The position numbers were made by a program, and so were the translations under genes. The notes under the pieces are model-generated. The model worked only from the letters and a program-made list of their open reading frames with translations. It was not told the DNA's origin and ran no database searches. This document shows, piece after piece, positions 19,858 through 59,870 of a DNA stretch of 64,000 nt. The stretch's first letter is position 1. Every line of letters begins with the position of its first letter. Source of the stretch: Stegostoma tigrinum (Eukaryota); NCBI RefSeq assembly GCF_030684315.1, contig NC_081384.1:31148935-31212934 (forward strand). Reading direction: 5' to 3'.

Positions 19858-20127
19858 TTAGAACTATATCCATATCCATTATTTGTTGTTGGCCTTAACT
19901 GAATAATTGTTATTCAGTTAACAATTAAAAAAGTAGGTGAAGGCAAAGCAACAACATAGACAAATCAGTATCTGTCAGACTGGCTTAATAATCTTTGACA
20001 TAGACGAGTTGTGGGCACAGCCCATTCACAATGTTGACCATGCAAACTAAAGCAGTTCAGTGCAAAACTGAAGGAGCTGTTGTCCTTTATTTTACTGACC
20101 TATTTTCCTAATCAATCTGTTCACAGA

Positions 20128-29150: not shown

Positions 29151-29618
29151 ATTGGACTTCAAAAGAATGAAAGGTCATCTCATAGAAAAATGCAAGATTT
29201 TTAGCAGGAAACACAATGAAAGGAATAATTCCCTTGCCTGAGGATCTGAAACATGGGGACACAGTCTCAGACTAAGCTAAAGAGAAAATTATTCTCTCAG
29301 AGGGCTGTGAATCTTTGGAATTCTCTACCCCAGAAAGTTGTGAATGTTTTATTATTGAATACTTTAAGGGCTAAATCACACAGATATCTTTTTCTAAGGG
29401 AAATTTCTTTTCTAAGTGTGGAGTTACGTCAGCAGATTAGCCACAATCATATTTAATGGCAAGCTGGACAGACCATGTGTTTATTCCTGCTTCAATTCTT
29501 GTGGTCAACTCTGATGCTCACCACATTTTCCTTCCTAGCTAATGAATTGATCAGTGTAAAAAATACTCACTGCTCATCCATGCATTAAATTCACATCATT
29601 TAACACCCATGTTAATCA

Positions 29619-29823
29619 AGGTCAAAAGTCACATGACACCAGGTTACAATTCAATAGGTTTAGTTGAAATCACAAACTTCCAGAAAGCTGCCCATTTGTC
29701 AGCTCCTGACGAAGAGGCAGCGCTTCAAACATTGATGATCTCAAATGAATCTGTTGGACTATAACCTAGTGTCGTTTGACGTCCGACCTTGTCCACCCCA
29801 GTCTACCACCAGCACCTCCACAT
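29619..29823. mobile_element. Fold-back Penelope-derived element (second family) with 11 bp TSD
   Basis: Imperfect inverted arms, CTGACGA core at 29706, one-sided tail; catgttaatca at 29608-29618 and 29824-29834. Confidence 0.75.
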
Positions 29824-30665
29824 CATGTTAATCATCGTAAACTGTTGATGCTAAGGCAGCCAGAATAATGACATTGTTAGGAAAGGATTGATTTTAGTTT
29901 CCCTCTGCATTATACTTCTTAGATTATGTGTCAATAACGATCACTTCATTGATTTTGTGTACTTTTTACAGTATTAAAAATTTGTAATTAATTTCCTACT
30001 GACTAGTAACTGCAGTTTTCAGTTGGAGCTACAAAACATGAATGGTGATTTATGTTGATAAGATAGTAATAAAAGGTTTCACTGAAGAGCTACATAACTA
30101 AAAAAAAAGTACTGAGAAAAGCTTGTGCAAATATGAACCTTCTGAAGAGTTATTTTCTTGTAGATTAAAGACAAACTTACATGATAACTTTGGTGTTTCT
30201 ACACTCCATTTGATAACTGATTCCAAATGCATCCAGTTTCTGTCTTGGTTCTAAGCAGAGACCATTTTCCATGCACTATAATGTTGTGTATACAGACACT
30301 AAACATCAGTTGAAAGCGGACTCGCTCGCCCAAGCTCAGTGGCTAAAATTAATGCAAAAATAAAACTATGGTCTGCTGAATGTAGTTTGCAATTAGAAGA
30401 GCCTTGCTATATAACACTTTTGAGCTGAGTCTGATCTGCATAGAGACGTAGTAACAATTTTCTTTTTATAGAGTTCGCTACATGCACAAATTAAATTGTC
30501 TCCACTGCATTTTTTAGGTGAACAATGGGAACACTTTTCCTTTTCCTTAACATAGAAATGTTACACTATCATATAATTTTAAAATACCTGAGGTGGACTC
30601 AGAGAGTTGTTATAAAATAGGCACACTTAAAATGCTCAGACCCCGGCAACTCAGATGAGAATGAG

Positions 30666-30832
30666 ACAAAAACCGAAAGATCTGTAAATCAGAAACAAAA
30701 ATGGAAATTGCTAGAAAAGCTCAGCGGGGGTGGCAGCACCTGTGGAAGGGTCATTCGATTCGAAACTTTAATTCTGATTTCTGTCCATAGATACTGCCAG
30801 ATCTGCTGAGCTTTTCCAGCAATTTCTCTCTT
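30666..30832. mobile_element. Fold-back Penelope-derived element with 10 bp TSD
   Basis: gaaattgctagaaaagctcagc / gctgagcttttccagcaatttc inverted arms; tgagaatgag at 30656-30665 and 30833-30842. Confidence 0.75.
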
Positions 30833-31769
30833 TGAGAATGAGGCAGCCAGTTTGACTGTAATGCGGTCAAAGATCATACTGTGATCTAGCACTCAGTTGT
30901 ATTGTAATTTCTGGTGTAGGCATAAGTAGTACTACAAAAACACATTGAGAATAATTCCATCTGTCATGATTCAGAAAGTACACGGTGAATTGCAAAGCAA
31001 CCTTCATTAAAAAAATATAATTTTTCAAATGTCTAAAGAATGTTGCGCATTGAAGATGTCCATGATAGCACAGTTTTAGTGGATGCCTAGTGTGGTACTG
31101 TCTTAACAATGCATCATTAAGTTGACTTTCTCTTAAAGAAATTAGTGCAGATAATGGTTACAAATAAAGATGGAATAATGGATTGGATACAAAATGACTG
31201 TGCGAGATACAGCAATACTACTTAGTCAAACTTTCAGTGAATGTTTGCTTTATAAAAATCTTTATGCAAGGGGCTACTGAGAGGTGATAAGAGTACATGC
31301 TGTACGTCCATTTCTGACTGTTGTGTTCTTTGTGTAGGTGATTGGAAATATCAAAGCAGCAAGATGCTGTTGAAACTTCATATGCACAACCCAGCTCAGC
31401 TCAGTATTGATGCCTTATTCATTCCTCACTCTGTGAAATGTATACCAGTGACATATTTACTGACCAGTATGTGAGGGGTTTTGTTCCACAGTTCTGTATG
31501 AAACAGAGTTGAAACAGTGGTCATGTCACACCACTTAATAAAAACATGGTGCTTTGTGTTTTTTTTACTGTCATCAGTTCAGGTTACCAGAACTAAAGTG
31601 CAATGTTATTGCATATTTAGTGGATTGTAGATGACACTGACGTGAACACACAAACAAATTTGGAGGTCGTGTTACTAATAACATGTTTAGGAAGTGCATA
31701 GTCCAATGTTCTATAATAATACAAAATGCATTACATTCAAAACATTTTGTTTTTTTGCCCAAATTTCAA

Positions 31770-33052: not shown

Positions 33053-33665
33053 GTAATGTAAACACACACATCATCCAACCCTTTAAACACTACACCTTGC
33101 TCAAAGCTTCTGTCACTAGATTAAAAATTGTTCCCAACACAATACGTCACCTAACTAAATATATCTATTCAAAGCAAAAACAGAAATTGCTGCAGAATCT
33201 TGGCAGGTTTGGAGGTATCTGTAGACAGAAAGCTGGATCAACATTTTGGGTCTAGTGACCCTTCCTCAAGTTCTAATTGTAGCTAAGAAAAGGTTACACT
33301 ATATGCTGAAAACAGGATATGGTTGGAGATGGAAGTGGGGGTTAGCACTGCAAGTGGAAGGGGTAAACAATATCCGGAGACTGAGATGGGAGAGAGAGAG
33401 AGAGAGAGAGAGACAGCAGCAACTGGGCAGGCAAAGGGATTGATTAAAGGGATTGAGCTGGGAGAAAGAAAAGTTGCTAATAGGGACCATTATTGGGTGA
33501 AAACTGGTTGGCTGTAGGGAAAGGAGCCCATGTGATGACAAGACTAAGTGTGTGGAATGGGGGAAAGATATGGAAATAGGTATTCAGGCCCTTAAATTGT
33601 TGATAATAAAATGTGAGGCTGGATGAACACAGCAGGCCCAGCAGCATCTCAGGAGCACAAAAGCT

Positions 33666-33693
33666 GACGTTTCGGGCCGAGACCCTTCATCAG
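33666..33693 (-). ncRNA. Minimal hammerhead ribozyme core (Penelope-associated type)
   Basis: Reverse complement CTGATGA-A-GGGT-CTCG-GCCC-GAAAC-GTC: both conserved boxes, 4 bp stem II, palindromic ACGT in place of stem III. Confidence 0.6.
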
Positions 33694-34340
33694 AGAGGGG
33701 AATGGAGTGAGGGTTCTGGAATAAATATGGAGAGAGGGGGAGGCGGACCGAAGATGGAGAAAAAAGAAGATAGGTGGAGAGGAGAGTATAGGTGGGGAGG
33801 TAGGGAGGGGATAGGTCAGTCCAGGGAAGACGGACAGGTCAAGGAGGTGGGATGAGGTTGGTAGGTAGGAAATGGAGGTGCGGCTTGGTGTGGGAGGAAG
33901 GGATGAGTGAGAGGAAGAACAGGTTAGGGAGGCAGAGACAGGCTGGACTGGTTTTGGGATGCAGTGGGTGGAGGGGAAGAGCTGGGCTGGTTGTGTGGTG
34001 CAGTGGGGGGAGGGGACAAACTGGGCTGGTTTTGGGATGCAGTGGGGGAAGGGGAGATTTTGAAGCTGGTGAAGTCCACATTGATACCATTGGGCTGCAG
34101 GGTTCCCAAGTGGAATATGAGTTGCTGTTCCTGCAACCTTCGGGTGGCATCATTGTGGCACTGCAAGAGGCCCAGGATGGACATGTCATCTAAAGAATGG
34201 GAGGGGGAGTGGAAATGGTTCGCGACTGGGAGGAGTAGTTGCTTATACTCTCCTCTCCACCTATCTTCTTTTCTCTCCATCTTTGGTCCGCCTCCCCCTC
34301 TCTCCCTATTTATTCCAGAACTCTCACCCCATCCCCCTCT

Positions 34341-34368
34341 CTGATGAAAGGTCTAGGCCCGAAACGTC
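34341..34368 (+). ncRNA. Minimal hammerhead ribozyme core; stem II has one mismatch
   Basis: CTGATGA-A-AGGT-CTAG-GCCC-GAAAC-GTC. Confidence 0.5.
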
Positions 34369-35957
34369 AGCTTTTGTGCTCCTGAGAAGCTGCTGGGCCT
34401 GCTGTGTTCATCCAGCCTCACATTTTATTATCTTGGATTCTCCAGCATCTGCAGTTCCCATTATCACCTTAAATTGTTGTACTGGATACTGAGTCTTGAA
34501 AGCTGCAGGTCTCCCAAGTGAAAAATGAGGTACTGTTTTTATAGATTACACTGAGCCTTGCCAGAACATGCAGCAGGTCCAAAGCACAGATGTTGACCAG
34601 GGAATATAGTGGTGTATTAAAGTGGCAGGCAATTTGGAGTCATATTTGTAGACGGAATGCAAGAGTTCTGCAAAGCAGTTGGCTAGTCTGTGTTTCATTC
34701 CCTCAATGTAGAGTAGATCACATAGAGAAGAGAATACAGTAGACTAGATTGGATGAAGTTCAGGTAAATCGCTGATCCATCTGGAAGGTATATTTTGGCC
34801 CTTGGATAGTGAGGAGGGAGGAAGTATAAACAGTTATGCCTTCTGTGATTGCATGGAAAGGTGCTGTGGGGGCATGGGGTGATGTTGAAAGTGGAGGAGG
34901 AGTGGAGCAGAGTGTCCTAGAGGGTAAGGTTTCTGTGGAATGCTGAAAAGGGAGAGGAGGGGAATATGTTTTGGTGCAGAAATGGCAGCTTATGATCCTT
35001 TGAAAGTGGATGCTGGAGGGACAGAAAGTGAGGACCAAGAGGACACTATCAGTATTATGGGATCAAAGAGAAGGGGCGAAAATAGATGTGTGCGAAATGG
35101 ATCAGATACAGCTAATGGCCTTGTCAACCACCATGGTGGTGAATCCCTGTCTGAGGAAAAAGATGAACCTTTCTGAAGCCCAACATTATCAGGAAGACTG
35201 CATCATCAGAATGGATGCAATGGATTCAGAGAAACTGGGAGAGCAGAATGGAACCTTTATAGGGAAAGGGTGTGAGGATGCATAGTTTAGGTAACAGTCG
35301 GCGTTGGAGCATTTGTAATTGATATTGGTGGCCAGGCTATCCCCAGAAATGGAAATAGAGTTATTGAAGAAGGGAAGGGAGGAGTCAGAGATGGACCCAG
35401 TGAAGTTGAGAGTGAGGTGGAAATTGGAAGCAAAATTGATAAACTTTTCCAATTCCAGACAAGAGAGGGCAGCAACACTGATGATGTCATGAATATACTA
35501 GAGAAAGAGTTGTTGGGAGGGACTCAAATAGGATTGGGTCAAGGAATGTGCCATGTGCCCCACAAAGAGTGAGGCGTAAATTTCATATTCTGTTTTTGTT
35601 TCAGATATCTGCAGTCTTTTTGTTTTTCGTTAATTCCTAATCAAATGTTTGTGTTTTCTGGTTAAATTGACTTGTTTTGGAGATAATACTCTCTGTCAAA
35701 CTCAAGTTGGTTGCTAAACAAAGAAACGTTTGCAACCTGACTTCGACGATATTTATGACCCACAGAAAGTGGTGACTCCGCACAGTTAAAGCCAATACTT
35801 AACTAGCCCACACAAATAGTCAAAACCAAATGATACCAAAGATTATTTAGATTTTCCCCTGAGAGCTTGTATGTTCATATTCTACCAAACTTCAACGTTA
35901 GAAACAAAGCAGTATCAAAGTGATTGGAACAAAAACGCTTTTCCCATTCTCTCACAG

Positions 35958-36098: not shown

Positions 36099-36354
36099 GT
36101 AGGTGCATACAATATGACTATCGCTCCTGCAGTGATAATTTGTATGATAAATACAAGATGTTTGCCAACAAGGGAAAAGTCAACATAGAAAATGAAATGT
36201 TGATGCTTTCAGTTCACACCTTGTTTATGCATTCATTGCTTTTACACTCATTCACTGTAAGTTTAACAATACCAGTTTTAAAATTGCAAGAAAGCACCAT
36301 TATTTTTGCGTATGATTGATTGGGTGAAAGAGATAACAACTCGCCAGTAATAGA

Positions 36355-36586
36355 TAACAAAGTGTGGGGCTGGATGAACACAGCAGGCCAAGCAGCATCT
36401 TAGGGACACAAAAGCTGACATTTTGGGCCTAGACCCTTCATCAGAAAACCTTTTCTGATGAAGGGTCCAGGCCCGAAACGTCAGCTTTTGTGCTCCTGAG
36501 ATGCTGCTTGGCCTGATGTGTTCATCCAGCCCCACACTTTGTTATCTTGGATTCTCCAGCATCTGCAGTTCCCATTATCTCCTCTA
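36355..36586. mobile_element. Near-perfect hairpin Penelope-derived element with 12 bp TSD in GH intron 4
   Basis: ~96 bp inverted arms meeting at cc (36449-36450), one-sided tail; gccagtaataga at 36343-36354 and 36587-36598. Confidence 0.9.
36455..36482 (+). ncRNA. Minimal hammerhead ribozyme core
   Basis: CTGATGA-A-GGGT-CCAG-GCCC-GAAAC-GTC. Confidence 0.6.
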
Positions 36587-39118: not shown

Positions 39119-39731
39119 TTACTGCATTGAATTGCCAACAAGCGTTTAGTTTTATTTTAAACTACCTTTTTGAGATAGGTGATTGAAACTATGCGGTCAT
39201 TCTAATGAATGGAGTACCTTCCAGATTTACCACCTTCCAGCACATGCAGGGCAGTTAAAGCAAATGCAGATACAAACTAAGACATCTACAACAATTAACA
39301 CCTAATGTTAGAAGAGCATCAAGATATAGTTTGCCTTTTTAAAAGTTCTCATTTTCACCACTGGAAACAATACCATTTTGTATTAATAATTTTAGCAATC
39401 AATTTGCTAACTAACTTAATGGGACTGAAATTTCAAAGCGACATTGTGAAATGTCTTGAAAGATGAAAAATAAGTCATTGAAAGCTAATGCTTTAGGAGA
39501 AACTGAAATAGATGCTTTTTCTGTGGTGTTACCTCCACACTTGAGACCGTTAAAAATGATCCCAGACATCACCGTCACTGAAGCCGAGTCTCAGCACGTA
39601 AGAGCGCCACCAAGTGTACACACTTGGTGCAACACACACACTCGATCTTGGAATGATTGCTGTGGTTCTTCTTTGCGTATCCAGTATAAATTCTCAGATA
39701 AGTGTTCTGAACGCAGTGAACATTTTATGGT

Positions 39732-40094
39732 CAGTAGATGTGAAGCTGGAAAAACACAGCAGGTCAGACAGCATCCGAAGAGCAGGAAAGTTTCGGGCCA
39801 AAACCCTTGTCAGGACAGGACAGGGGGAGAGGAGCCCAGAAGTAAACAGAGGGAGGGTGTGGTTTCGGGGACGGGTAGGTTGGATTGGTCATTGGGATAG
39901 GTGGATAGGAAGAAGATGGGTTAGGCCAGGTCAGGGAGGCAAGGATGAAGGGAGCACTGGACATGGGATAAGGCTGGAGGTGGAGGGATGTTGAAGCTGG
40001 TGAAGTCAACAGTGATGTCATTGGGCTGTAAGCTCCCAAGGCGAAATACCGGCTGTTGTCCCCATAATTTATGTTTGGCCTCACTCCAGGCACA
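39732..40094 (-). mobile_element. Truncated Penelope-like element 3' end with 14 bp TSD between GH and RDM1
   Basis: gaacattttatggt at 39718-39731 and 40095-40108; similar to 33610-34140; degenerate CTGACAA..GAAAC motif. Confidence 0.8.
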
Positions 40095-40970: not shown

Positions 40971-41093
40971 ATGGCTGCTGTCGCCGGGAGTTTGGCACAG
41001 GCAGAAATTATAGACTTTAAAATCCCGACTCGAAATGATAAAACTCTTTTTGTCTGCAATATTCTTCCCAGAGAGTCCGAGGCTGAAATTTAT
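40971..41093 (+). CDS. RDM1: RDM1 exon 1: MAAVAGSLAQAEIIDFKIPTRNDKTLFVCNILPRESEAEIY (in-frame alternative ATG at 40920)
   Basis: Aligns with human MAELVPFAVPIESDKTLLVWEL; GTgagt donor at 41094, phase 0; start codon uncertain. Confidence 0.85.
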
Positions 41094-41189
41094 GTGAGTG
41101 CCGGGGTATGACAGACAGCATGAGGAGGAGATAGTGGAGGGGGAATGGGTGGGAGGATGTATGAGGTGTTGGTGGGAATGCTGGGGGTG

Positions 41190-44100
41190 GGGGTGGGGAA
41201 GCGTTGGTGGGCATGCTGGGGGTGGGCATGCTGGGGGTGGGGGTGGGGGTGGGGAAGCGTTGGTGGGCTGGGGAAGAGTTGGTGGGCTGGGGAAGAGTTG
41301 GGGGGGTGGGCTGGGGAAGAGTGGGGGGGTGGGCTGGGGAAGAGTGGGGGGGGGGCTGGGGAAGAGTGGGGGGGGGCTGGGGAAGAGTTGGGGGTGGGGC
41401 TGGGGAAGCGTTGGGGGGGGTGGCTGGGGAAGCGTTGGGGGGGGTGGCTGGGGAAGCGTTGGGGGGGTGGCTGGGGAAGCGTTGGGGGGGTGGCTGGGGA
41501 AGCGTTGGGGGGAGGGCTGGGGAAGCGTTTGGGGGGGGGCTGGGGAAGCGTTGGGGGGGTGGCTGGGGAAGCGTTGGGGGGGTGGCTGGGGAAGCGTTTG
41601 GGGGGGTGGCTGGGGAAGCGTTGGGGGGCTGGGGAAGCGTTGGGGGGCTGGGGAAGCTTTGGGGGGGGGCTGGGTAAGCGTTGGGGGGCTGGGGAAGCGT
41701 TGGGGGGCTGGGGAAGCGTTGGGGGGCTGGGGAAGCTTTGGGGGGGGGCTGGGGAAGCGTTGGGGGGCTGGGGAAGCTTTGGGGGGGGGCTGGGGAAGCG
41801 TTGGGGGGCTGGGGAAGCTTTGGGGGGGGGCTGGGGAAGCGTTGGGGGGCTGGGGAAGCTTTGGGGGGGGGCTGGGGAAGCGTTGGGGGGGGGGCTGGGG
41901 AAGCGTGGGGGGGGGGCTGGGGAAGCGTTGGGGGGGGGCTGGGGAAGCGTTGGGGGGTGGCTGGGGAAGCGTTGGGGGGTGGCTGGGGAAGCGTTGGGGG
42001 GCTGGGGGGGGGCTGGGGAAGCGTTGGGGGGGGGCTGGGGAAGCGTTGGGGGGGGCTGGGGAAGCGTTGGGGGGGTGGCTGGGGAAGCGTTGGGGGGCTG
42101 GGGAAGCGTTGGGGGGGGTCTGGGGAGGGCTGGGGAAGCGTTGGGGGGGGGCTGGGGAAGCGTTGGGGGGGTGGCTGGGGAGGGCTGGGGAAGCGTTTGG
42201 GGGGGGGGCTGGGGAAGCGTTGGGGGGGGGCTGGGGAAGCTTTGGGGGGGTGGCTGGGGAAGCTTTGGGGGGCTGGGGAAGCTTTGGGGGGGGGCTGGGG
42301 AAGCGTTGGGGGGGTGGCTGGGGAAGCGTTGGGGGGGTGGCTGGGGAAGCGTTGGGGGGGGTCTGGGGAGGGCTGGGGAAGCGTTTGGGGGGTGGCTGGG
42401 GAAGCGTTTGGGGGGTGGCTGGGGAAGCGTTTGGGGGGTGGCTGGGGAAGCGTTGGGGGGGGGGCTGGGGAAGCGTTGGGGGGGTGGCTGGGGAAGCGTT
42501 TGGGGGGGGGCTGGGGAAGCGTTGGGGGGGTGGCTGGGGAAGCGTTGGGGGGGGCTGGGGAAGCTTTGGGGGGGTGGCTGGGGAAGCTTTGGGGGGCTGG
42601 GGAAGCTTTGGGGGGGGGCTGGGGAAGCGTTGGGGGGGGGCTGGGGAAGCGTTGGGGGGGTGGCTGGGGAAGCGTTGGGGGGGGTCTGGGGAGGGCTGGG
42701 GAAGCGTTTGGGGGGGGGCTGGGGAAGCGTTGGGGGGGGGCTGGGGAAGCGTTGGGGGGGGGCTGGGGAAGCGTTGGGGGGGGGCTGGGGAGGGCTGGGG
42801 AAGCGTTGGGGGGGGGCTGGGGAAGCGTTGGGGGGGTGGCTGGGGAAGCGTTGGGGGGGTGGCTGGGGTAGCGTTGGGGGGGTGGCTGGGGAGGGCTGGG
42901 GAAGCGTTTGGGGGGGGCTGGGGAAGCGTTGGGGGGGTGGCTGGGGAAGCGTTGGGGGGCTGGGGAAGCTTTGGGGGGGGGCTGGGGAAGCGTTGGGGGG
43001 CTGGGGAAGCGTTGGGGGGCTGGGGAAGCGTTGGGGGGCTGGGGAAGCTTTGGGGGGGGGCTGGGGAAGCGTTGGGGGGCTGGGGAAGCTTTGGGGGGGG
43101 GGCTGGGGAAGCGTTGGGGGGCTGGGGAAGCTTTGGGGGGGGGGCTGGGGAAGCGTTGGGGGGCTGGGGAAGCTTTGGGGGGGGGCTGGGGAAGCGTTGG
43201 GGGGCTGGGGAAGCTTTGGGGGGGGGGCTGGGGAAGCGTTGGGGGGCTGGGGAAGCGTTGGGGGGCTGGGGAAGCGTTGGGGGGCTGGGGAAGCTTTGGG
43301 GGGGGGCTGGGGAAGCGTTGGGGGGCTGGGGAAGCTTTGGGGGGGGGGCTGGGGAAGCGTTGGGGGGCTGGGGAAGCTTTGGGGGGGGGGCTGGGGAAGC
43401 GTTGGGGGGCTGGGGAAGCTTTGGGGGGGGGGCTGGGGAAGCGTTGGGGGGCTGGGGAAGCGTTGGGGGGGGCGGCTGGGGAAGCGTTGGGGGGCTGGGG
43501 AAGCGTTGGGGGGCTGGGGAAGCGTTTGGGGGGGGGCTGGGGAAGCGTTTGGGGGGGGGCTGGGGAAGCGTTTGGGGGGGGGGCTGGGGAAGCGTTGGGG
43601 GGGTGCTGGGGAAGCGTTGGGGGGGTGCTGGGGAAGCGTTGGGGGGGGGCTGGGGAAGCGTTTGGGGGGGGGCTGGGGAAGCGTTGGGGGGGGGGCTGGG
43701 GAAGCGTTGGGGGGGGGCTGGGGAAGCGTTGGGGGGGTGGCTGGGGAAGCGTTGGGGGGCTGGGGAAGCTTTGGGGGGGGGGCTGGGGAAGCGTTGGGGG
43801 GCTGGGGAAGCTTTGGGGGGCTGGGGAAGCTTTGGGGGGGGCTGGGGAAGCGTTGGGGGGCTGGGGAAGCTTTGGGGGGGGGGCTGGGGAAGCGTTGGGG
43901 GGCTGGGGAAGCTTTGGGGGGGGGGCTGGGGAAGCGTTGGGGGGCTGGGGAAGCGTTGGGGGGCTGGGGAAGCTTTGGGGGGCTGGGGAAGCTTTGGGGG
44001 GGTGGGGCTGGGGAAGCTTTGGGGGGGGCTGGGGAAGAGTTGGGGGGGGTGCTGGGGAAGCGTTGGGGGGGGGCTGGGGAAGCGTTGGGGGGGGGGCTGG

Positions 44101-47100
44101 GGAAGCTTTGGGGGGGGGGCTGGGGAAGCGTTGGGGGGCTGGGGAAGCGTTGGGGGGCTGGGGAAGCTTTGTGGGGGGGCTGGGGAAGCGTTGGGGGGCT
44201 GGGGAAGGTTTGGGGGGGGGCTGGGGAAGCGTTGGGGGGCTGGGGAAGCGTTGGGGGGCTGGGGAAGCGTTGGGGGGCTGGGGAAGCGTTGGGGGGCTGG
44301 GGAAGCTTTGGGGGGGTGGGGCTGGGGAAGCTTTGGGGGGGGCTGGGGAAGAGTTGGGGGGGGTGCTGGGGAAGCGTTGGGGGGGGGCTGGGGAAGCGTT
44401 GGGGGGGGCGGCTGGGGAAGCGTGGGGGGGGCGGCTGGGGAAGCGTTGGGTGGGGGGCTGGGGAAGCGTTGGGGGGCTGGGGAAGCGTTGGGGGGGGCTG
44501 GGGAAGCGTTGGGGGGGGCTGGGGAAGCGTTGGGGGGGGCTGGGGAAGCGTTGGGGGGCTGGGGAAGCGTTGGGGGGGGTCTGGGGAAGCATTGGGGGGG
44601 GCTGGGGAAGCGTTGGGGGGGGTCTGGGGAAGCATTGGGGGGGGCTGGGGAAGCGTTGGGGGGCTGGGGAAGCGTTGGGGGGGGTCTGGGGAGGGCTGGG
44701 GAAGCGTTGGGGGGGGGGTGCTGGGGAAGCGTTGGGGGGGGCGCTGGGGAAGAGTTGGGGGGGGGCTGGGGAAGCGTTGGGGGGGGTGGCTGGGGAAGCG
44801 TTGGGGGGGGTGGCTGGGGAAGCGTTGGGGGGGTGGCTGGGGAAGCGTTGGTGGGGGGGCTGGGGAAGCGTAGGGGGGGGCTGGGGAAGCGTAGGGGGGG
44901 GCTGGGGAAGCGTAGGGGGGGGCTGGGGAAGCGTTGGGGGGCTGGGGAAGCTTTGGGGGGGGCTGGGGAAGCGTTGGGGGGCTGGGGAAGCTTTGGGGGG
45001 GGGGGCTGGGGAAGAGTTGGGGGGGGCTGGGGAAGAGTTGGGGGGGGTGCTGCGGAAGCGTTGGGGGGGTGCTGGGGAAGAGTTGGGGGGGGTGCTGGGG
45101 AAGAGTTGGGGGGGGGGCTGGGGAAGCGTGGGGGGCGCTGCTGGGGAAGCGTTGGGGGGGGGCTGGGGAAGCGTTGGGGGGCTGGGGAAGCGTTGGGGGG
45201 CTGGGGAAGCTTTGGGGGGGGGCTGGGGAAGCGTTGGGGGGCTGGGGAAGCTTTGGGGGGGGGGCTGGGGAAGAGTTGGGGGGGGCTGGGGAAGCGTTGG
45301 GGGGCTGGGGAAGCGTTGGGGGGCTGGGGAAGCTTTGGGGGGGGGGCTGGGGAAGCGTTGGGGGGCTGGGGAAGCGTTGGGGGGCTGGGGAAGCGTGGGG
45401 GGGGGTGCTGGGGAAGCGTTGGGGGGGGGCTGGGGAAGCGTTGGGGGGCTGGGGAAGCGTTGGGGGGCTGGGGAAGCGTTGGGGGGCTGGGGAAGCGTTG
45501 GGGGGCTGGGGAAGCTTTGGGGGGGGGGCTGGGGAAGCGTTGGGGGGCTGGGGAAGCGTTGGGGGGCTGGGGAAGCTTTGGGGGGGGGGCTGGGGAAGCG
45601 TTGGGGGGGGGGCTGGGGAAGCGTTGGGGGGGGTGCTGGGGAAGCGTTGGGGGGGGCTGGGGAAGCATGGGGGGGCTGGGGAAGCATTGGGGGGGGCTGG
45701 GGAAGCGTTGGGGGGCTGGGGAAGCGTTGGGGGGGGCTGGGGGGGCTGGGGAAGCGTAGGGGGGGGCTGGGGAAGCGTAGGGGGGGGCTGGGGGGGCTGG
45801 GGAAGCGTAGGGGGGGGCTGGGGGGGCTGGGGAAGCGTGGGGGGGGGCTGGGGGGGCTGGGGAAGCGTAGGGGGGGTCTGGGGAAGCGTAGTGGGGGGCT
45901 GGGGGGGCTGGGGAAGCGTGTGGGGGGCTGGGGAAGCGTGGGGGGGGCTGGGGGGGCTGGGGAAGCGTAGGGGGGGGCTGGGGGGGCTGGGGAAGCGTGG
46001 TGGGGGGGCTGGGGAAGCGTTTGGGGGGGGGCTGGGGAAGCGTTTGGGGGGGGGCTGGGGAAGCGTAGGGGGGGGCTGGGGGGGCTGGGGAAGCGTGGTG
46101 GGGGGGCTGGGGGGGCTGGGGAAGCGTGGTGGGGGGGCTGGGGAAGCGTAGGGGGGGGCTGGGGGGGCTGGGGAAGCGTGGTGGGGGGGCTGGGGGGGCT
46201 GGGGAAGCGTGGTGGGGGGGCTGGGGAAGCGTTTGGGGGGGGGCTGGGGAAGCGTTTGGGGGGGGGCTGGGGAAGCGTTTGGGGGGGGGCTGGGGAAGCG
46301 TTTGGGGGGGGGCTGGGGAAGCGTTGGGGGGGGGGCTGGGGAAGCGTTGGGGGGGGGCTGGGGAAGCGTTGGGGGGGGGGCTGGGGAAGCGTTGGGGGGG
46401 GGGCTGGGGAAGCGTTGGGGGGGGGGCTGGGGAAGCGTTGGGGGGCTGGGGAAGCGTTGGGGGGGGGGGCTGGGGAAGCGTTGGGGGGCTGGGGAAGCGT
46501 TGGGGGGGGGGCTGGGGAAGCGTAGGGGGGGGCTGGGGGGGCTGGGGAAGCGTTTGGGGGGGGGCTGGGGAAGCGTTTGGGGGGGGGCTGGGGAAGCGTT
46601 TGGGGGGGGGGCTGGGGAAGCGTTGGGGGGCTGGGGAAGCGTTGGGGGGGGGCTGGGGAAGCGTTGGGGGGCTGGGGAAGCGTTGGGGGGCTGGGGAAGC
46701 GTTGGGGGGGGGCTGGGGAAGCGTTTGGGGGGGGGCTGGGGAAGCGTTGGGGGGGGGCTGGGGAAGCGTTGCGGGGGGTGCTGGGGAAGCGTTGGGGGGG
46801 GGAGCTGGGGAAGCGTTGGGGGGGGAGCTGGGGAAGCGTTGGGGGGGGGAGCTGGGGAAGCGTTGGGGGGGGGAGCTGGGGAAGCGTTGGGGGGGGGAGC
46901 TGGGGAAGCGTTGGGGGGGTGGCTGGGGAAGCGTAGGGGGGGGCTGGGGGGGCTGGGGAAGCGTAGTGGGGGGGCTGGGGGGGCTGGGGAAGCGTAGTGG
47001 GGGGGCTGGGGAAGCGTAGTGGGGGGGCTGGGGGGGCTGGGGAAGCGTAGGGGGGGGCTGGGGAAGCGTAGTGGGGGGCTGGGGGGGCTGGGGAAGCGTG

Positions 47101-47730
47101 TGGGGGGCTGGGGAAGCGTGTGGGGGGCTGGGGAAGCGTGTGGGGGGCTGGGGAAGCGTGTGGGGGGGCTGGGGAAGCGTGTGGGGGGGCTGGGGAAGCG
47201 TGTGGGGGGCTGGGGAAGCGTGTGGGGGGCTGGGGAAGCGTGTGGGGGGCTGGGGAAGCGTAGGGGGGGCTGGGGAAGCGTAGGGGGGGCTGGGGGGGCT
47301 GGGGAAGCGTGGGGGGGGCTGGGGGGGCTGGGGAAGCGTAGGGGGGGGCTGGGGGGGCTGGGGAAGCGTGGGGGGGGGCTGGGGAAGCGTAGTGGGGGGG
47401 GGTGGCTGGGGAAGCGTGGGGGGGGGGTGGCTGGGGAAGCGTGGGGGGGGGGTGGCTGGGGAAGCGTGGTGGGGGGCGCTGGGGAAGCGTGGTGGGGGGG
47501 GCTGGGGAAGCGTGGTGGGGGGGGCTGGGGAAGCGTAGGGGGGGGGCTGGGGAAGCGTGGTGGGGGGAGCTGGGGAAGCGTGGTGGGGGGAGCTGGGGAA
47601 GCGTGGGGGGGTGGCTGGGGAAGCGTAGGGGGGGGCTGGGGGTGCTGGGGAAGCGCGGGGGTGGGTGCTGGGGAAGCGCGGGGGGGGGCTGGGGAAGCGC
47701 GGGGGGTGGCTGGGGAAGCGTTGGGGGGTG
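41190..47730 (+). repeat. ~6.5 kb G-rich minisatellite, unit approximately GCTGGGGAAGCGTT(G)5-10 (about 19-24 bp, roughly 300 copies)
   Basis: Direct reading; variants AAGCTTT, AAGAGTT, AAGCGTAG, AAGCGTGT, AAGCATT, AAGCGCG. Confidence 0.98.
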
Positions 47731-48300
47731 AGGCAGAATGGCGTGGGGGATAGGGTGCAAATGGGAAAGGAAGCAGTGGATGGGGGAACTGGGGCGGTGA
47801 GAGAGTAGCGGAAAGGGGCAGGATGGAAAATGGGAAGGTAACGATGGAGAGATTGGGGAAGGAAGAGAAGTGGAGTTGTTGGGGGGGGGGAGGGAAGGAC
47901 CTGGGTAACAGAGAGTCTGAATGGGACGATGGGGGGAAGAATAGGGAAACGGGAGAGAAGGTGGTGATGAGTTGGGGGCTGGGGTAAGCATGGGCTAGAT
48001 GGTGAAGTAATCTGTAAAGGGGAAGGGAGGTTGGGATTGAGGAGAGTTTGAGATGGGGAGAGAGGGGAAGGAAAGAGATATCTGGAAGTTGTAGGTGTTA
48101 AGGGAGGGGTGAAGTGTAGGTACTGAGGGAACCAGGTTGGTATTGAGTAACCAGCCCTGTCTACTTTGGGGCCAAGGGGAAATATAGCCTTGTAATGACA
48201 AAAATGGTGAATAGTGAAGTATATCCACCCCCTAAGGGAGTGGAAAATGAGTGGCTGTCTCACAATTATAGTGGTCTTTGTCCCTTTCCTGTGTCCACAG

Positions 48301-51435: not shown

Positions 51436-52105
51436 CAAGAACTAGGAGCAGGAGTAGTCAGTTCTGCTGCTTGAGACTACTCTGCTGTTTGATACAATCA
51501 TGGCTGATCTCACCTTGGCCTCAACTTCACTTTCCTGCCTGTTCTCCATAATCCTTCAACCCATTACTCGTCAAAAATCTGTCTACCACCTCCTCAAATT
51601 TATTCACTGTTGTGTTACCACCAGCCTCAGCTAACAAATGCCACAGATTCATGGCTTTACAAGGAAAAATAACCTCTCCTCATCTCTGTTTTAAATCTGC
51701 TACCCCTTATCCGAAAACCAAGACCCCTCATTCTAGATTACCCCACATGTAGGAATATGCTCTCTAAGTCTACTTTGTCAATCCTCTTTAGCATCATTAT
51801 ACCTCAACATGATCTCCTCTCATTATTCCAAACTCTGTAGAGTATAGGTCTAAACTGCTCAATCTTTCATCGCCAGACAAACCCATTTTCTGTGAAATTA
51901 ATGTAGTGACAATCCTTTGAATTGCCTCTTATGCAACTACATCACCCCTCAAGGGGGCCAAATTTGCATGCAGTACTTCAGGTCTGGTGTCACTAAAGTC
52001 TTGTATAGTTGCAGCAACACTTACCTACTTTTATGCATTATTGCTTTAGCATATTGTATTATTCCTTTTGTCTTCCAGATTATCTGCTGCACCTGCATTG
52101 TAGTT
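51436..52105 (-). mobile_element. Older CR1 LINE 3' fragment
   Basis: gaactaggagcaggagtag tail and tgcagtacttcaggtctggtgtcactaa region (reverse of the LVxPxLxYCxQ motif). Confidence 0.7.
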
Positions 52106-52113
52106 TTGTGATT

Positions 52114-52683
52114 TGTGAGGATAGTATGACTTTGAAGTATATTTTGCCTTAAAAAAGGCTGAGACAGGTGACTAGTGATCTGCTCAAAGCCAACAAAGTA
52201 CACAACTTGTGAAGCCTTGGGTTTTTTAAAATAGGAAAAACAGAAGCAACCTGATAATTGTAGCTTTCAGCAGTTGCATGGGTCTTAAAGCTGAATGTAA
52301 AATCTTTTAGCTGTAACAGAGATATGAATAAGCTGTGGTTCTTTCTGCTGCTAGAATTTCATGTGAGACACTCTTGTTTACTGAATTTGCCTTTGTCAAG
52401 GGTGTGTTTATGGGATGTTGCTACATTGAAAAAGTTAATTTGTTAATGTATATGTTATAAGTATTTCAATAGATACAGTTAACCCTTCTTTAATTTTGTC
52501 TGTGTTTTAACTAGTGTAAAAATAAAGTGTATTTAGCTTAAAGTCAAGTAGTTTGACCAATCAAATTGCATCTGGAATGGAATGCCTTACACTTACCTTT
52601 AAAATAGGGAAACATTAAGTCTAGGCTATCTTCTTAATATATTTTGGGAGCTGGGGAGAGTGGGTTTAGTCTGGTGCATAACA
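52114..52683. mobile_element. Solo LTR (570 bp) with 4 bp TSD
   Basis: TG...CA termini, gatt at 52110-52113 and 52684-52687, internal AATAAA; related to 10518-11164. Confidence 0.75.
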
Positions 52684-53445: not shown

Positions 53446-53577
53446 GTTCAAATGTGCACAAAGCGACAGTCTATGAAAATTTCCCAAGAGAACCAACTTC
53501 CTCTAAATAGCATTAAATGCCAGGAACTGGCCAATTACTACCTTGGTTTTAATGGCTGGTGCAGTCGCATAATTGCA
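53446..53577 (+). CDS. RDM1: RDM1 exon 3 (RAD52-like RD motif): VQMCTKRQSMKISQENQLPLNSIKCQELANYYLGFNGWCSRIIA
   Basis: tatAG/GTaagt, 132 nt; matches human LNSSKCQELANYYFGFNG. Confidence 0.97.
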
Positions 53578-54317
53578 GTAAGTAGAAAATAGCCATTCAA
53601 AACAATCTTCCTATCTCTGAATAAAATATAATGGACTTCTTTGTATTTAAAGCATTAATTGAAATGAACTTGAGCAGCCCACTTTTATGCTGGACAGTAA
53701 ACTTCCAACATTTTTAAAATAATGTTGCTTACTGTAGCTGCTTGCCCTTCACCTACACTTAAATAGTTATTGTCAGCCACACAATGTAATTTTGAATATG
53801 TCTTGTTCTTGAATTGGAGCCTTTGACTTACTGATTCGTTGTCACTTGCTGTCTCTCTACCTTAAAACCTTTCACCTTCCCCTCACATTCGCAAAAAATA
53901 AACTATCTTTTGAATTCCTCACACTTCAACTCCATTCAGCCTATCCCATGGCTTGAGACAGCATTGAAATCTTATGGTGATCTTCATAACTCTCTTCACC
54001 AGGGGTCAAATATGGGTCACTTGTGCTTCCCTTTATTAAAAACATGTTCACTGACCTTCAGGTGTGGAGATTATAAACTCAAGCATATGTGGTAAATATT
54101 ACAAACATGATTTATACTCAAACGTTGTCTTATTTACATGGTATTATTCTCTCCGATGTAAAATTGTCCTGGAGAAAGCATTACCTTAAAAGTTTTCTTT
54201 TTCTTATCTGGTTGTCTCCTTGTATCATCTGGCATACGTTCCCTCCATTGTCAATTTATACAACTCTATGAAGCACTTGTGTGTCTTTTTACCCAAAACT
54301 GGGGCACTTCTAGCTAC

Positions 54318-54789
54318 AGAGATAGTAGAAACTGCAGATGCTGGAGAATCTGAGATAACAAGGTGTCGAGCTGGATGAACACAGCAGGCCAAGCAGCATC
54401 AGGAAGGCTGACGTTTTGGGCCTAGACCCTCCTTCAGAAAATCTAGTGCAAGAGTGTGTTAAGAAATTAAGCTCAATGATGTACAGTTTGCAAGTTTCTG
54501 ACACTGGGCTCAGTGTAGAGATAGCTGGGAAAGACTTCTGTGATCTTTGCCCAAACCAAACTGGAGAAAATAATAAGTTATTCATGTCTAATTCTTGAAC
54601 AAGCAGGTGAATACAGTTACAACACTCGGTCATGGAAGGAAATAAAGGGGTAAAATTAAACATCAATATACACTTGGAAACTGATCTCATTTGTTTCTGA
54701 AGAAGGGTCTAGGCCCGAAACATCATCCTTCCTGCTCCTCTGATGCTGCTTGGCCTGCTGTATTCATCCAGCTCTACACCTTGTTATCA
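54318..54789. mobile_element. Fold-back Penelope-derived element carrying an inverted copy of neighbouring intronic DNA; 13 bp TSD with one mismatch
   Basis: Arms 54318-54440 and 54695-54788; insert 54442-54694 is the reverse complement of 56291-56543; cacttc(t/c)agctac at 54305-54317 and 54790-54802. Confidence 0.9.
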
Positions 54790-55147
54790 CACTTCCAGCT
54801 ACTCCATCTTTACAAACACTCTTTCTTTTTTTTTAGTTTACAGTTTCAGATTCATCTTCTGTCTTCAACCTGTCTGCCTTCTGCGATCATACTTGACATA
54901 ACCTGCCCGGCATCCTGGATTGCATGTTAACCCCTATTTATGCTTGCTATTTCAATCAATCTTTTGTCCTGCTGATCAAAGTTCCCAGGATATCCTCCAT
55001 GACTGATTGTGGGTCACTTTCTTTTCATCTTTGATTATTTCTCAACTGTATTGAATCACATTGAACGTGCTTCTTTATTCTAAAAATTCTCCTCCATTGT
55101 CCAAATGGGGCATTGCATTTTGGTGCACTACCACTAAAGCCATAATT

Positions 55148-56168
55148 CATAAAGATGTATAGCATGAAAACACATCCTTCAGTTCAACTCGTGCATGCTA
55201 GCCAGATATCCTAAATTAATCTAGTCCCATTTGGCCCAGATCCCCCTCAACCCTTCCTAATTCATGCAGTCATACAGGTGCCTTTTAAATGTAATTATAC
55301 CAGTCTCCATCACTTCCTCTGGCATCTCATTCCATACATGCATCACCCTCTGCATGAAAAAGTTGCCTCTTACATCCCTTTAAACTTTCCCATGTCATCT
55401 TAAACCTGTGCTCTCTAGTTTTGGACACCACTACCCTAGGGAAAAGACCTCGGCTATTTCCTCTGTCTGTGCACCCACCCTCATGATTTTATTAACTTCT
55501 ATAACGTTGCCCCTCAGTCTCCAGTCCAGGGAAAATAGCCCTGGCCTATTCAGCCACCCCCTAAAGCTTAAGACGTACAACTTTGGCAACATTCTTAAGT
55601 TTTTTTTCTGGACCCTTTCAGATTTCACAACACCGTCTTTCCTATACCAGGAAGAACAGAATTGAATACAGTGTTCCAAACGTTTTTGGCCTAACATGTC
55701 CTGTACAGCCTCAACATGACCTCCCAACTCGTACACTCAGTGCACTGACCAATAAAGGCAAGCATACCCAAAGCCGCCTTCACTATCCTGTCTATCTGCA
55801 ACTCTATTTTCAAGGAACTATGAACCTGCACTCCAAGGTCCTTGTTCAGCAGCACTCCCCAGGACCTTACCATTAAGTGTATAAGTCCTGCCCTGATTTG
55901 CCTTTCCAAAATGCAGCACCTCACATTTATACAAATTAAACTCCATCTGCCACTCACCCATTCGGCCCATCTGATCAATGTCCTGTACTACTCGGAGGTA
56001 ATCTTGTTGGCTGTCCACTTCATCGCTAATTTTGGTGTCATCTGTGATCTTCCTAACCATATCTACTGTGTTCACATCCAAATCTTTTATAATAAATGAT
56101 AAAATGCAGTGGACCCAGCACCAATCCTTGTGGCACACCACTGGCCACAGGCCTCCTGTCTGAAAAAC
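55148..56168 (-). mobile_element. CR1 LINE 3' portion
   Basis: KITDDTKI (degenerate FADD), EWQMEFNLYKCEVLHFGKAN, LEHCIQFCSSWYRKDGVVKSERVQKK; similar to 48790-49830. Confidence 0.9.
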
Positions 56169-57519
56169 ATACTACTTTGCCTCAAATGGCATTTCATGTC
56201 ATGCTGGCATGGTCACCTGTAGTTTATCTGTGAAGCTGTGTATTGATGGAACCCTGATTCATTATTTGCATGTCTTTTGTTGATATTTGGACAAATGAGA
56301 TCAGTTTCCAAGTGTATGTTGATGTTTAATTTTGCCCCTTTATTTCCTTCCATGACTCTGTGTGTGTTGTAACTGTATTCACCTGCTTGTTCAAGAATTA
56401 GACATGAATAACTTATTATTTTCTCCAGTTTGGTTTGGGCAAAGATCACAGAAATCTTTCCCAGCTATCTCTACACTGAGCCCAGTGTCAGAAACTTGCA
56501 AACTGTACATCATTGAGCTTAATTTCTTAACACACCCACTAGAATTACTTTCTTGCTTGAAATGCCTGTTTCTGCATCTATTAATGAAAAATACATCCAC
56601 ACTTTTTTTTTCTTCTTGAGGCTGAAATTATTTTGCAGTTCTTGCTGTCTTCATTCTTTCTAACTTAGTAACAGTGTTTGAAAACTGATTTATTGCCGCA
56701 CATGAATCTTGCTAGTCATCCAATATCTGGTCTGTACTCAGCTTCACAGTCTTTTCCATTGCCAATAGTATCAACTACAAGCTCTGATTTTTTCATTTAA
56801 ATCTACCAGTGGCCTTGCTTCTCTCCATTTTCAGCTTCCTCTAGTTATGTTTTCATGTGTTCTTTCTACTCCCAATACCAGATTATTTGTCACATCCTTG
56901 CAGCATTGATCATTGCTCGTTCAATCACTATGCTTTCCAACCTGTGATTTTCTATTTTGGTACATCTGCTTCTGTTTCCATCCATGTTTTAGAAGCCTCC
57001 TGCCAAAATTTTTCTTTGACTGTACTTTCATGCTACCTTCAACCTTGATGCCACGCGCTAAGGGCTGAGCGTAAAGCACTTGGGTATCTTTACACTTTAT
57101 ATAAGATGCTTTATGTGATTGAGCTATCATCCTGTAAATTAGTTTACCATTCATGCACTTAGCACATAGAACATTACAGCCCAGAACAGGCCCTTCGGCC
57201 CTCGATGTTGCGTTGCATGATGAGCAATATGTCATCAGATTAGAAAGAAACTGCCCCATAGCTGATGACACAGAATGAGGAACCTCTTATCATGCTGCAG
57301 CTGCAGATGTTGGAAATAAACTCTGTTTGAATGAAGGTTTTTCTCTTCTAAGAAAGAAAAAGGGACTTTCACATTTGCACCACTCATGGGAATATTCAGT
57401 AACTATTTTCCCTTTTACCATCAGTATGCTATAAAAAGTGCAAAGTTAGTCTAAGAAAATGGCCCTAGTTAATTTGTTGTGAGGGGAATTGACTACAAAT
57501 GTATTGAAGTTATACTTAA

Positions 57520-58500
57520 GTCATACAGGCATTGCTGAGATCACATATGGAGAGATACATGCAGTATCGGTCACCTTATTTAAAGAAGGATGTAAATGCA
57601 AGGAAGCAGTTCACAAGTCTACCGGGCTAATAATTGAAATGGATGGGTTGTCTTAAGGAAATGTTGGACAGGCTAGGCTTGTGTCAGCTGGAGTGTGGAA
57701 GATTTAAGAGGTACTTTTTTGAAACATTTGGATCTTTGGGGTCATTGCATGTGGAAAGGATGTTTCTCCACAAACTCAGAATCACTGTTTTAAAAATAAG
57801 GTGTTTCCTGTTTAAGATTTAAAAAAAAATTTCAGATGGTCATGAGCCATTGGAATGCTCTTCCTCAAACAGCGAGGCAGAAGTGAGTTCTTGATGAACA
57901 AGATTTGAAAGATTATCAGGATAAGCAGAAATATAAAGTAAACAGTCACAATCTTGGTTGAGTGGCTTATTCCACCTAATTCGTGTGTTTATGTTTTTCT
58001 CTTGTCCTGCTTTGTTGAATAGCAGTGCAATATTTGCTAGCTTCCCCTCCCTTAATGCCCTTCTATAATGTGAGGAATTTTATAAAATCACCACAAATGC
58101 CTCCAACCTCTCTGAAAGCATCTCTTTTATAAGTTTAGAAAGTAGCCTCTTGTGTCCAGGAGAATTGCCCCATATTGTCCCCATAATTTCCTGTGCTGAT
58201 TTAAGTACTTTAACTTCCTCACTCTCATATACACTTTGATTTTCAGTCATTTTGGGAATACTTTTTGGACGTCCTACTGTGAAATTGGGTACCAATATTT
58301 TGTTTTCTGCCATTTTCCTATTTCCCACTGTAATTTCTTTCCTCTCAGCCTGTGTACTTTAGCTTCCATTTTGCTTACTTGTAAGAACTTGCAATCTGTT
58401 TTTGAGATTTCTTGTTTTCTTGTGTTTGTATGACTTTATTTTGACTTTTTGAATTTTTGATCATCCTTTGTTGTTTTCACAACTATTCCAAATATTCAGG
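57520..58500. mobile_element. Highly decayed CR1 fragments in both orientations
   Basis: tcaccttatttaaagaaggatgtaaatgca on +; MGNRKMAENKILVPNFTV on -. Confidence 0.5.
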
Positions 58501-59502
58501 CTTACCACTGTACTTTGACATTTTGAGCCTATTCTTTCCAGGCTGCACTTAAAGCCAGTGATCTCACTACGTGACACACCATACACACGTGGGCAGTAGG
58601 AATGTATTGCAGGTTGACATCACCACAAAACAATGGAACAGTAGCTGATTTGTAACAAAAATCGTCCTGCCCAGCCATTCACAGGGTAGAAGTTCTGAAG
58701 TGTTCCTAGAAAAATTAAATATTCTGATCATGAAGGATTTATTCCTTTTGGAAAGCTGGATTGAGCTGACCAATCGCTCCACAGAGGTTAATGTATCACT
58801 TGTATGAGAGGGTGATTGTTTCACAAAGCTGTATTTGATTCTGAGTGTTTTGCAGTAAAATAGATACTTTACATGACATGCCATTTTGCATGCACAATGG
58901 CAAACAGCAACAGATTCCTGCTGCAACAGATCAATGTCATCTGGACTGCACAAGGCATCCATGTGCACACAGCTGTCAGCAGCCATCTTTAACGACACAC
59001 CTGTCTTTGGAGCACACTTATTTTTCATTCAAAACTTAACTTCTTTAGGCAATCATAGCTGAATTACTTTTACTGTGGTGATTGCTTCTTGATGGAATGT
59101 AGTTTCATTGAGAATTGTTCTGAATATGTCACTGCTTATCTATCTATCTTTTTAATCCATTTACTCAATTAAATTTAGGCATAAAGCTATGTAATTCGCT
59201 TACAAAATTAAAGATTCCTTCAGATATAAACATATCACTGAAATTGTACATGGAATAGAAATGCATGTGAATTTATTCAAATGAATTATACTATTAAGAT
59301 TGCACTGGTTCATAGGTTACTTGACAGTGAGGTTACTAATTTACACTATCACGTTCTAGAATACAGAATCTGAAATATATTGCCTTGTTTGGTGCCATGT
59401 TGTAGTATTCTGGGAAACGGTCTTCAATTAATCTATGAATTAATTTTCCAGGTTACCTTTGCCAATTTGATTTGTGAAGCACCAATTCCTGCATAAGTTG
59501 TG

Positions 59503-59618
59503 ATGTGGAAGTGCCAGTGTTGGACCTGGGGTGGACAAGGTCAGAAATCACACAACACCAGGTTATAGTCCAATAAATGTGTTGGACTATAACCTAATCT
59601 TGTGTGATTTCTGACCTT
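59503..59618. mobile_element. Short hairpin element of the 29619 family, about 80 bp upstream of RDM1 exon 4
   Basis: caaggtcagaaatcacacaa..ggttatagtccaa / ttggactataacct..ttgtgtgatttctgaccttg; imperfect TSD gcataagttgtg / gcaaaaattgtg. Confidence 0.75.
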
Positions 59619-59701
59619 GCAAAAATTGTGTATGCTAAGGGTGTCTGTGTTCTAGTTCACATTTCATTGTCTTATTTGCAGCCTCTGTTTCTAATATACA
59701 G

Positions 59702-59870
59702 CTCCAGAATATTTCTAATTCAGGTGGATGTGAAGAAAATACACAGGAACTGGGGCAACTGGAGAGAAAGAGCATGAAATATATTTGTGTTATGGAAGTT
59801 AAATTGAGAAATTACGGCATGTGTTCTAAAGGTATTGGGATTTCTGAAGAATTTGACCAAGACATAACAG
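59702..59870 (+). CDS. RDM1: RDM1 exon 4: LQNISNSGGCEENTQELGQLERKSMKYICVMEVKLRNYGMCSKGIGISEEFDQDIT
   Basis: tacAG/GTgaga, 169 nt phase 0/1; aligns with human LQELSD..SLKFFCALEVVL..SPGIGLVEE. Confidence 0.93.

Follow-up and report, generated by a model that had tools for sequence, protein, structure and literature searches.

Inverted-pLTR insertions of Penelope and Poseidon elements have been described as head-to-head, 5′-truncated arms with a tail of 30–40 bp at one end, a target-site duplication (TSD) and a hammerhead motif (PMC8557442, PMC11167929). The Poseidon protein of Anolis cuts and extends both strands, needs no primer homology and has two internal start sites for reverse transcription, with the tail lying between them; the arm-joining steps of Penelope insertion are given in the same paper as yet to be validated (PMC11167929). 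In the rotifer Adineta vaga, non-coding unrelated sequences occur between solo Penelope repeats with TSDs; such spacers were ascribed to capture of host DNA, and template jumps were proposed (PMC3846280). Extra local synthesis was also reported for LINE-1: fold-back inverted duplications of 52–220 bp (3 + 1 cases), one co-inserted local pre-mRNA (PMC10191854), 22 templated insertions, typically shorter than 250 bp and lying no more than 15 bp from the site (10.1101/2024.08.27.596794), and three templated insertions with near-site genomic templates (PMC11702581).

We analysed a 64-kb stretch of zebra shark (Stegostoma tigrinum) DNA (the window, to which all positions refer) containing an insertion of this kind at 54318–54789. 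The insertion shares the arms, tail and TSD listed above for Penelope and Poseidon insertions, and its repeat carries a hammerhead-like core motif. Unlike those described in PMC8557442 and PMC11167929, it has unrelated local host DNA at its centre, instead of element sequence or nothing, and no ORF. It resembles the A. vaga solo-pLTR captures in that non-coding unrelated DNA is framed by Penelope repeats and a TSD. The gene-containing A. vaga case, which has two pLTRs in direct and one in inverted orientation, was read as mobilization in trans to a new site (PMC3846280), whereas the source of the shark sequence lies 1.5 kb away in the same intron, in inverted orientation; for the non-coding cases the main text of PMC3846280 gives no source position or orientation. 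With the LINE-1 cases the shark insertion shares probable twin priming plus extra synthesis on nearby sequence; its TSD likewise encloses non-element DNA copied from a neighbouring segment that is still intact. The LINE-1 events, as described, involve another enzyme class and somatic human cells; the shark event is fixed in a vertebrate germ line, its source is 1.5 kb distant and its copy lies between two arms.

The earlier note on this DNA knew of no capture of this form in sharks. So broad a claim of novelty has to be narrowed, since host DNA between Penelope repeats (PMC3846280) and near-site LINE-1 templating are published. Our literature search, made in sources that included few subscription journals and in papers without their supplements, returned no paper for the shark terms and no Penelope report with a locally sourced inverted centre. 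Known processes can explain the insertion, in a combination that is new: a Penelope-type joint in a vertebrate, with a cargo that can be traced to a source 1.5 kb away.

Arm anatomy of the RDM1 insertion and its relatives

The host gene is RDM1, as an exon at 48301 matches RDM1 of zebra shark with 100% identity. The RDM1 protein mapped to the window in five plus-strand blocks, with no block between 53580 and 59696; therefore, the cargo copy and its source lie within one RDM1 intron, with no exon between them. The intron is bounded by plus-strand exons at 53446–53577 and 59702–59870 (protein mapping, with splice sites read from the sequence). RDM1 introns contain other repeats as well. A G-rich tandem array of ∼6.6 kb (41130–47755) lies in intron 1 directly after the first coding exon (40971–41093); its minus strand has open frames of >2300 codons in all three frames, and it is probably a low-complexity satellite. 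Old minus-strand LINE remnants lie in RDM1 introns at 51500–52140 (matching a reference reverse transcriptase, RT) and at 57960–58570 (a weak tblastx match to a sequence near 27.6 kb); the latter presumably resembles CR1.

The insertion is 472 bp long and is flanked by a 13-bp TSD with one mismatch (plus-strand copies at 54305–54317 and 54790–54802). Only two 13-mers in the whole window, the left copy included, are within one mismatch of the left copy. Between the TSD copies are, in order, a tailed long arm (124 nt), a cargo (253 nt) and a tail-less short arm (96 nt), with the arms head-to-head. The long arm occupies 54318–54441 in minus-strand element sense, including a tail of ∼36 nt (54318–54353), and has an 8-nt deletion relative to sister arms. 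The short arm (54694–54789) starts with tttCTGAAGA; its element sense is the plus strand, which is also the RDM1 sense strand. The two arms align over 87 nt with six substitutions and one 8-nt indel.

The same plan recurs in the elements at 33602 and 36353: in element sense, a hammerhead-like box is followed by ∼65 nt and a shared stop at TTATC, and a further ∼36 nt of tail occurs on one arm only, the tail of the present insertion having counterparts in the long arms of both relatives. The Penelope layout published in PMC8557442 matches this plan, including a tail at one end only. An inverted 5′-truncated repeat with head-to-head arms, a one-end tail of 30–40 bp and a TSD are all present, which supports the view that the arm anatomy is the normal Penelope/Poseidon layout; an ORF is absent from this copy, and no RT was seen. 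The comparison bears out what the earlier note had said of the 13-bp TSD, the Penelope-derived arms and the start of the opposite arm. From the anatomy, we tentatively take the clade to be Poseidon.

Head-to-head arm pairs with TSDs were found by inspection at six sites in the window (∼29619, 30669, 33602, 36353, 54318 and 59503). One of the six, the present insertion, has a foreign centre, one (33602) has the end of its own ORF there, and four have short centres; the cargo sequence is absent from the other five. For the centres of the two main comparators, our reading agrees with the earlier note. The element at 36353–36584 shares the arm anatomy, but only 2 nt separate its arms; it has a 12–15-bp TSD and forms a palindrome of 196 nt (92%). 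The element at 33602–34466 has 189-nt arms around its own ORF end and a 12–13-bp TSD. This 60-aa ORF end had no GIY-YIG match in Pfam; its nearest named Atlas cluster carries GIY-YIG on 15% of members (score 0.89), which we treat as a lead only. In an older Penelope-like fragment at 39720–40060, a peptide resembling a GIY-YIG end is similar to the one in the 33602 element.

The remaining pairs, at 29608–29834, 30656–30845 and 59490–59630, belong to other Penelope-like families and have 11–13-bp TSDs and short centres. For the four short centres (29.6, 30.7, 36.4 and 59.5 kb), outside matches within 3 kb reached 9–10 nt at most in all four; we took these matches as chance or as another family copy and rejected local templating there. 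On the top strand, the centre of the 36353 element (36449–36450) reads CC, which could be a non-templated or cap-templated RT addition, or, as a single case, chance.

The element had been called hammerhead-armed, a term borne out by a core motif only; the hammerheads are decayed, and an Rfam scan gave no hammerhead among four matches at E ≤ 1. The pattern fits the minimal type-I hammerhead as described in PMC4209133 (CUGANGA, an unpaired nucleotide, helix II, GAAA and NUH). The short-arm core (54697–54724, plus strand) keeps CTGANGA and GAAA, with palindromic ACGT changed to ACAT; the long-arm core (54410–54437, minus strand) carries A9G and G12A and was missed by a search for the intact pattern. 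The core is intact in three of four sister arms. By eye, the bases preceding CUGA and those following the cleavage triplet form at most two helix I pairs, fewer than the 4–5 bp of the minimal type-I hammerhead (PMC4209133), and minimum-energy folds of the arms lacked the hammerhead fold. The term thus describes the ancestry of the arms, with no activity implied; ribozyme cleavage was dispensable for Poseidon insertion in vitro (PMC11167929).

The four inner arm ends of the two short elements (near 36444/36455 and 54437/54697) all lie 3–5 nt upstream of the CTGA box; an end at the ribozyme cleavage site is thereby ruled out. In four solo fragments of a second family (near 19860, 22765, 33270 and 40490), homology is apparently lost at about the same point. 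A shared end at the 5′ edge of the hammerhead, rather than at the cleavage site, suggests a defined RNA 5′ end or a run-off point.

The cargo and its source

The cargo (54442–54694, minus strand) is an inverted copy of the intronic plus-strand block 56291–56543 and overlaps each arm by at most 1 nt. Positions 54454–54694 align with the reverse complement of 56291–56535 at 96.3% identity over 245 columns (E = 2e-114), and 54442–54448 match 56537–56543 exactly. The differences amount to four mismatches and two complex indels in local alignment, or six substitutions and three gaps in global alignment. Between the aligned parts, near the left junction, is a 5-nt filler (54449–54453) which, with 54448, matches 56551–56556; this 6-mer lies 8 nt beyond the source block and occurs in ∼1% of 30-nt intron windows. 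When the 64 kb were searched with the cargo at word size 7, the source was the sole match apart from the cargo itself. The local inverted duplication proposed in the earlier note is thus confirmed by alignment, with correct coordinates for insertion, cargo and source; its prediction that just these two copies exist holds within the window.

Three features together mark the block at 56291–56543 as the original. It has no flanking TSD and no arms. Its AT and GC skews (−0.13 and −0.15) have the same sign as in the neighbouring intron (one short left flank with positive GC skew being the exception), whereas those of the copy (+0.11 and +0.16) are reversed relative to its own flanks. Finally, the filler matches sequence outside the block.

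Several identities of the source were considered and rejected. RDM1 protein mapping rules out an RDM1 exon. A coding sequence or part of an old LINE ORF was also rejected: the stop-free 78-aa minus-strand frame over the source had no useful Pfam match and no relative at E ≤ 10 among five candidates, and its two matches in the representative library (DUF11 or fascin repeat proteins) had weak summed scores and were judged spurious. A tblastx comparison of the intron with the window revealed no credible second relative. An ADAR signature in the cargo was not supported either, with one of three clean transitions being A-to-G in RNA sense. Inversion of the cargo places a donor-like CAG|GTGAAT (54604–54612) and two poly(A)-like hexamers (54641 and 54655) on the RDM1 sense strand, candidates by sequence.

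Copy and source are 1488 nt apart. Between them, at 55148–56169 on the minus strand, lies a 3′ fragment of a LINE with six frameshifts and one stop over 312 codons, recognized by computed RT homology; we take its type to be CR1. Its position agrees with the earlier note, which had added that the original gap was only ∼0.5 kb if the CR1 came later. Without the CR1 the gap is indeed 467 nt, but the fragment leans towards being older than the insertion: 55 of 186 amino acids are private changes, at sites where the reference RT and the CR1 copy at 48796 agree. The implied divergence, an upper bound, is ∼14% per base; the arms stand at 3.5% and the cargo at 0.8%. We do not call the CR1 clearly much older, because its 19.5% difference from the 48796 copy mixes in subfamily differences and its six frameshifts fit the 3.8–5.2 indels expected on the cargo or arm clock; what points to greater age is the private-change count. 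Given this leaning, the jump probably spanned ∼1.5 kb. One protein met in these comparisons, P0012, is labelled Proteus mirabilis reverse transcriptase, comes from a 1.7-kb contig and is 67% identical to the shark LINE RT; the record looks like vertebrate contamination of a bacterial assembly.

Proposed capture during integration and its alternatives

From the arm plan, together with the two-strand priming and two RT start sites of PMC11167929, we infer that priming at the two sides of the cut gave one cDNA arm each, and that the two cDNA ends were joined at the centre. We consider it somewhat probable that the cargo was copied in while these ends were being joined, during Penelope-like (Poseidon-type) integration, with nascent RDM1 RNA or exposed local DNA as template. 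Both target strands were cut 13 nt apart, as the TSD shows. Each 3′ end would then prime reverse transcription, the tail start site giving the long arm and the inner start site the short arm, and both cDNAs would stop at one shared position, just upstream of the hammerhead box; this step is modelled on the anatomy and the published biochemistry, and the later ones are inferred. Before joining, one cDNA end may have been extended by ∼250 nt along a local template to which it had hardly any homology. In the simplest version, the top-strand cDNA of the long arm jumps to a plus-sense molecule at ∼56543, slips once and copies to 56291, the candidate templates being nascent RDM1 intron RNA and the displaced non-template DNA strand. 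The insertion would be completed by end-joining to the short arm. The product would most likely be a one-off local inverted duplication, dead on arrival.

The structure agrees with capture during integration in several respects. The TSD encloses arm, cargo and arm as a single unit, and the cargo occupies precisely the position of the arm joint in sister elements. Compared with the 36353 element, the inner arm ends differ by 1–2 nt at most, with no sign of trimming, and the cargo/arm junctions overlap by ≤1 nt, below the 2–6 bp of microhomology quoted for MMBIR (PMC4954712). Since arm ends are untrimmed and overlaps minimal, the junctions suit homology-driven repair less well than blunt joining or an RT jump. 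Within a plus-strand gene, the orientation of copy and source fits top-strand cDNA on RDM1-sense RNA. It does not discriminate, however: bottom-strand fold-back on at least 1.5 kb of resected DNA yields the identical sequence, so RNA and DNA templates cannot be told apart. Counting against capture at integration, the event is single (one of six arm pairs in the window), and in the largest published LINE-1 series the templates typically lie ≤15 bp from the site (10.1101/2024.08.27.596794), versus 1.5 kb here.

The main alternative, which we hold to be possible and clearly the less likely, places the capture after insertion. A near-perfect palindrome of ∼190 bp, like that of the 36353 element, would have broken at its hairpin tip, and host repair by fold-back, SD-MMEJ or MMBIR would have copied 250 nt from 1.5 kb away, with no role for a transposon RT. 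That such palindromes form is shown by the 36353 sister, and breakage and repair of this kind have been proposed for a 180-bp human palindrome at Xq27.1, which has repeatedly received near-centre insertions with small extra templated pieces (PMC4954712). The likeness extends to palindrome size, foreign DNA near the tip and small filler pieces, and the junction filler of the shark insertion fits slipping of the repair type; the Xq27.1 inserts are nevertheless large and interchromosomal, with microhomology and small deletions, as reported there, while the shark arms lost at most 1–2 nt relative to the 36353 element and have junction homology of ≤1 nt. A late break also needs a hairpin, which arms already diverged by several percent should form less readily.

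The divergence clocks lean slightly towards such later repair. Cargo and source are less diverged (4 of 241 sites) than the arms and TSD (7 of 100; Fisher P = 0.017), which hints that the cargo may be younger than the arms. Without CpG sites, the difference is not significant (P = 0.13); an arm-only test with the global cargo count (6 of 248) gave P = 0.086, and 16 settings of assumed GC and CpG rate weights gave P from 0.019 to 0.21. Moreover, other arm pairs are diverged by 4.8% and 7.3%, so arms may run faster or derive from two transcripts. The difference could equally reflect noise, faster change in arms, two donor RNAs or gene conversion that acted later on copy and source. Later repair at the palindrome centre had no place in the earlier note; its proposal that template switching occurred during insertion stands as the most likely reading.

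Two further explanations concern the origin of the cargo itself. It might have come with a chimeric donor RNA from elsewhere, or the block at 56291 might be one copy of a young repeat, its closeness being due to chance. We think this very unlikely: the 64 kb contain a single match, the source has neither arms nor TSD, the sequence is missing from the other five arm pairs, the 78-aa source frame found no relative beyond weak library matches, and thousands of young copies would be needed to place a near-identical one within 2 kb by chance. Slighter still is the chance that polarity is reversed, with the 56291 block derived, or that an error of assembly produced the duplicate. By themselves, the indels that separate copy and source could be read in either direction; but the copy sits between TSD-bounded arms, the skews point to 56291 as the native block, the filler has its match beyond that block, and four substitutions and two complex indels are unlike a duplicated read.

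Consequences for RDM1 and for Penelope-like integration

Mobilization of the cargo, suggested in the earlier note, found no backing: no second cassette with the same cargo and arms exists in the 64-kb window, and the arms are short, decayed and would base-pair in a transcript (82 long-arm bases pair with the short arm in the predicted RDM1 pre-mRNA structure). In Anolis, Poseidon RNA must reach ORF position 172, and its reverse transcription begins farther upstream, within a stem loop at 111–118 (PMC11167929). By analogy, the inserted arms probably lack the required downstream RNA part, and remobilization of the cargo is unlikely.

For the host, RDM1 pre-mRNA gains an inverted repeat of 245 bp and 96% identity, with a predicted duplex energy of −433 kcal/mol. 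As modelled, the cargo/source duplex is a likely substrate for A-to-I editing. The biological weight of a single decayed intronic insertion is small in itself, and an effect on the gene is hypothetical only.

The wider interest lies in the joint. Local host sequence at the centre shows that a free, extendable 3′ end existed where the arms meet. We put forward, as a speculative generalization, that very abundant short Penelope-like RNAs of sharks stop at one fixed position just upstream of the hammerhead box, and that RT running off this end at two-strand-primed sites recurrently jumps to nascent pre-mRNA up to kilobases away, which is then written between the arms. If this is true, head-to-head pairs would preserve, across the genome, the traces of past RT jumps onto local transcripts, and recurrent jumps would be a steady source of intronic inverted repeats as well as a sequence-only test of the Penelope integration mechanism. 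Given many cases, the distance, the strand relative to host transcription and the age would tell RT jumps on RNA apart from DNA repair by the host, and two-strand priming would be tested in vivo.
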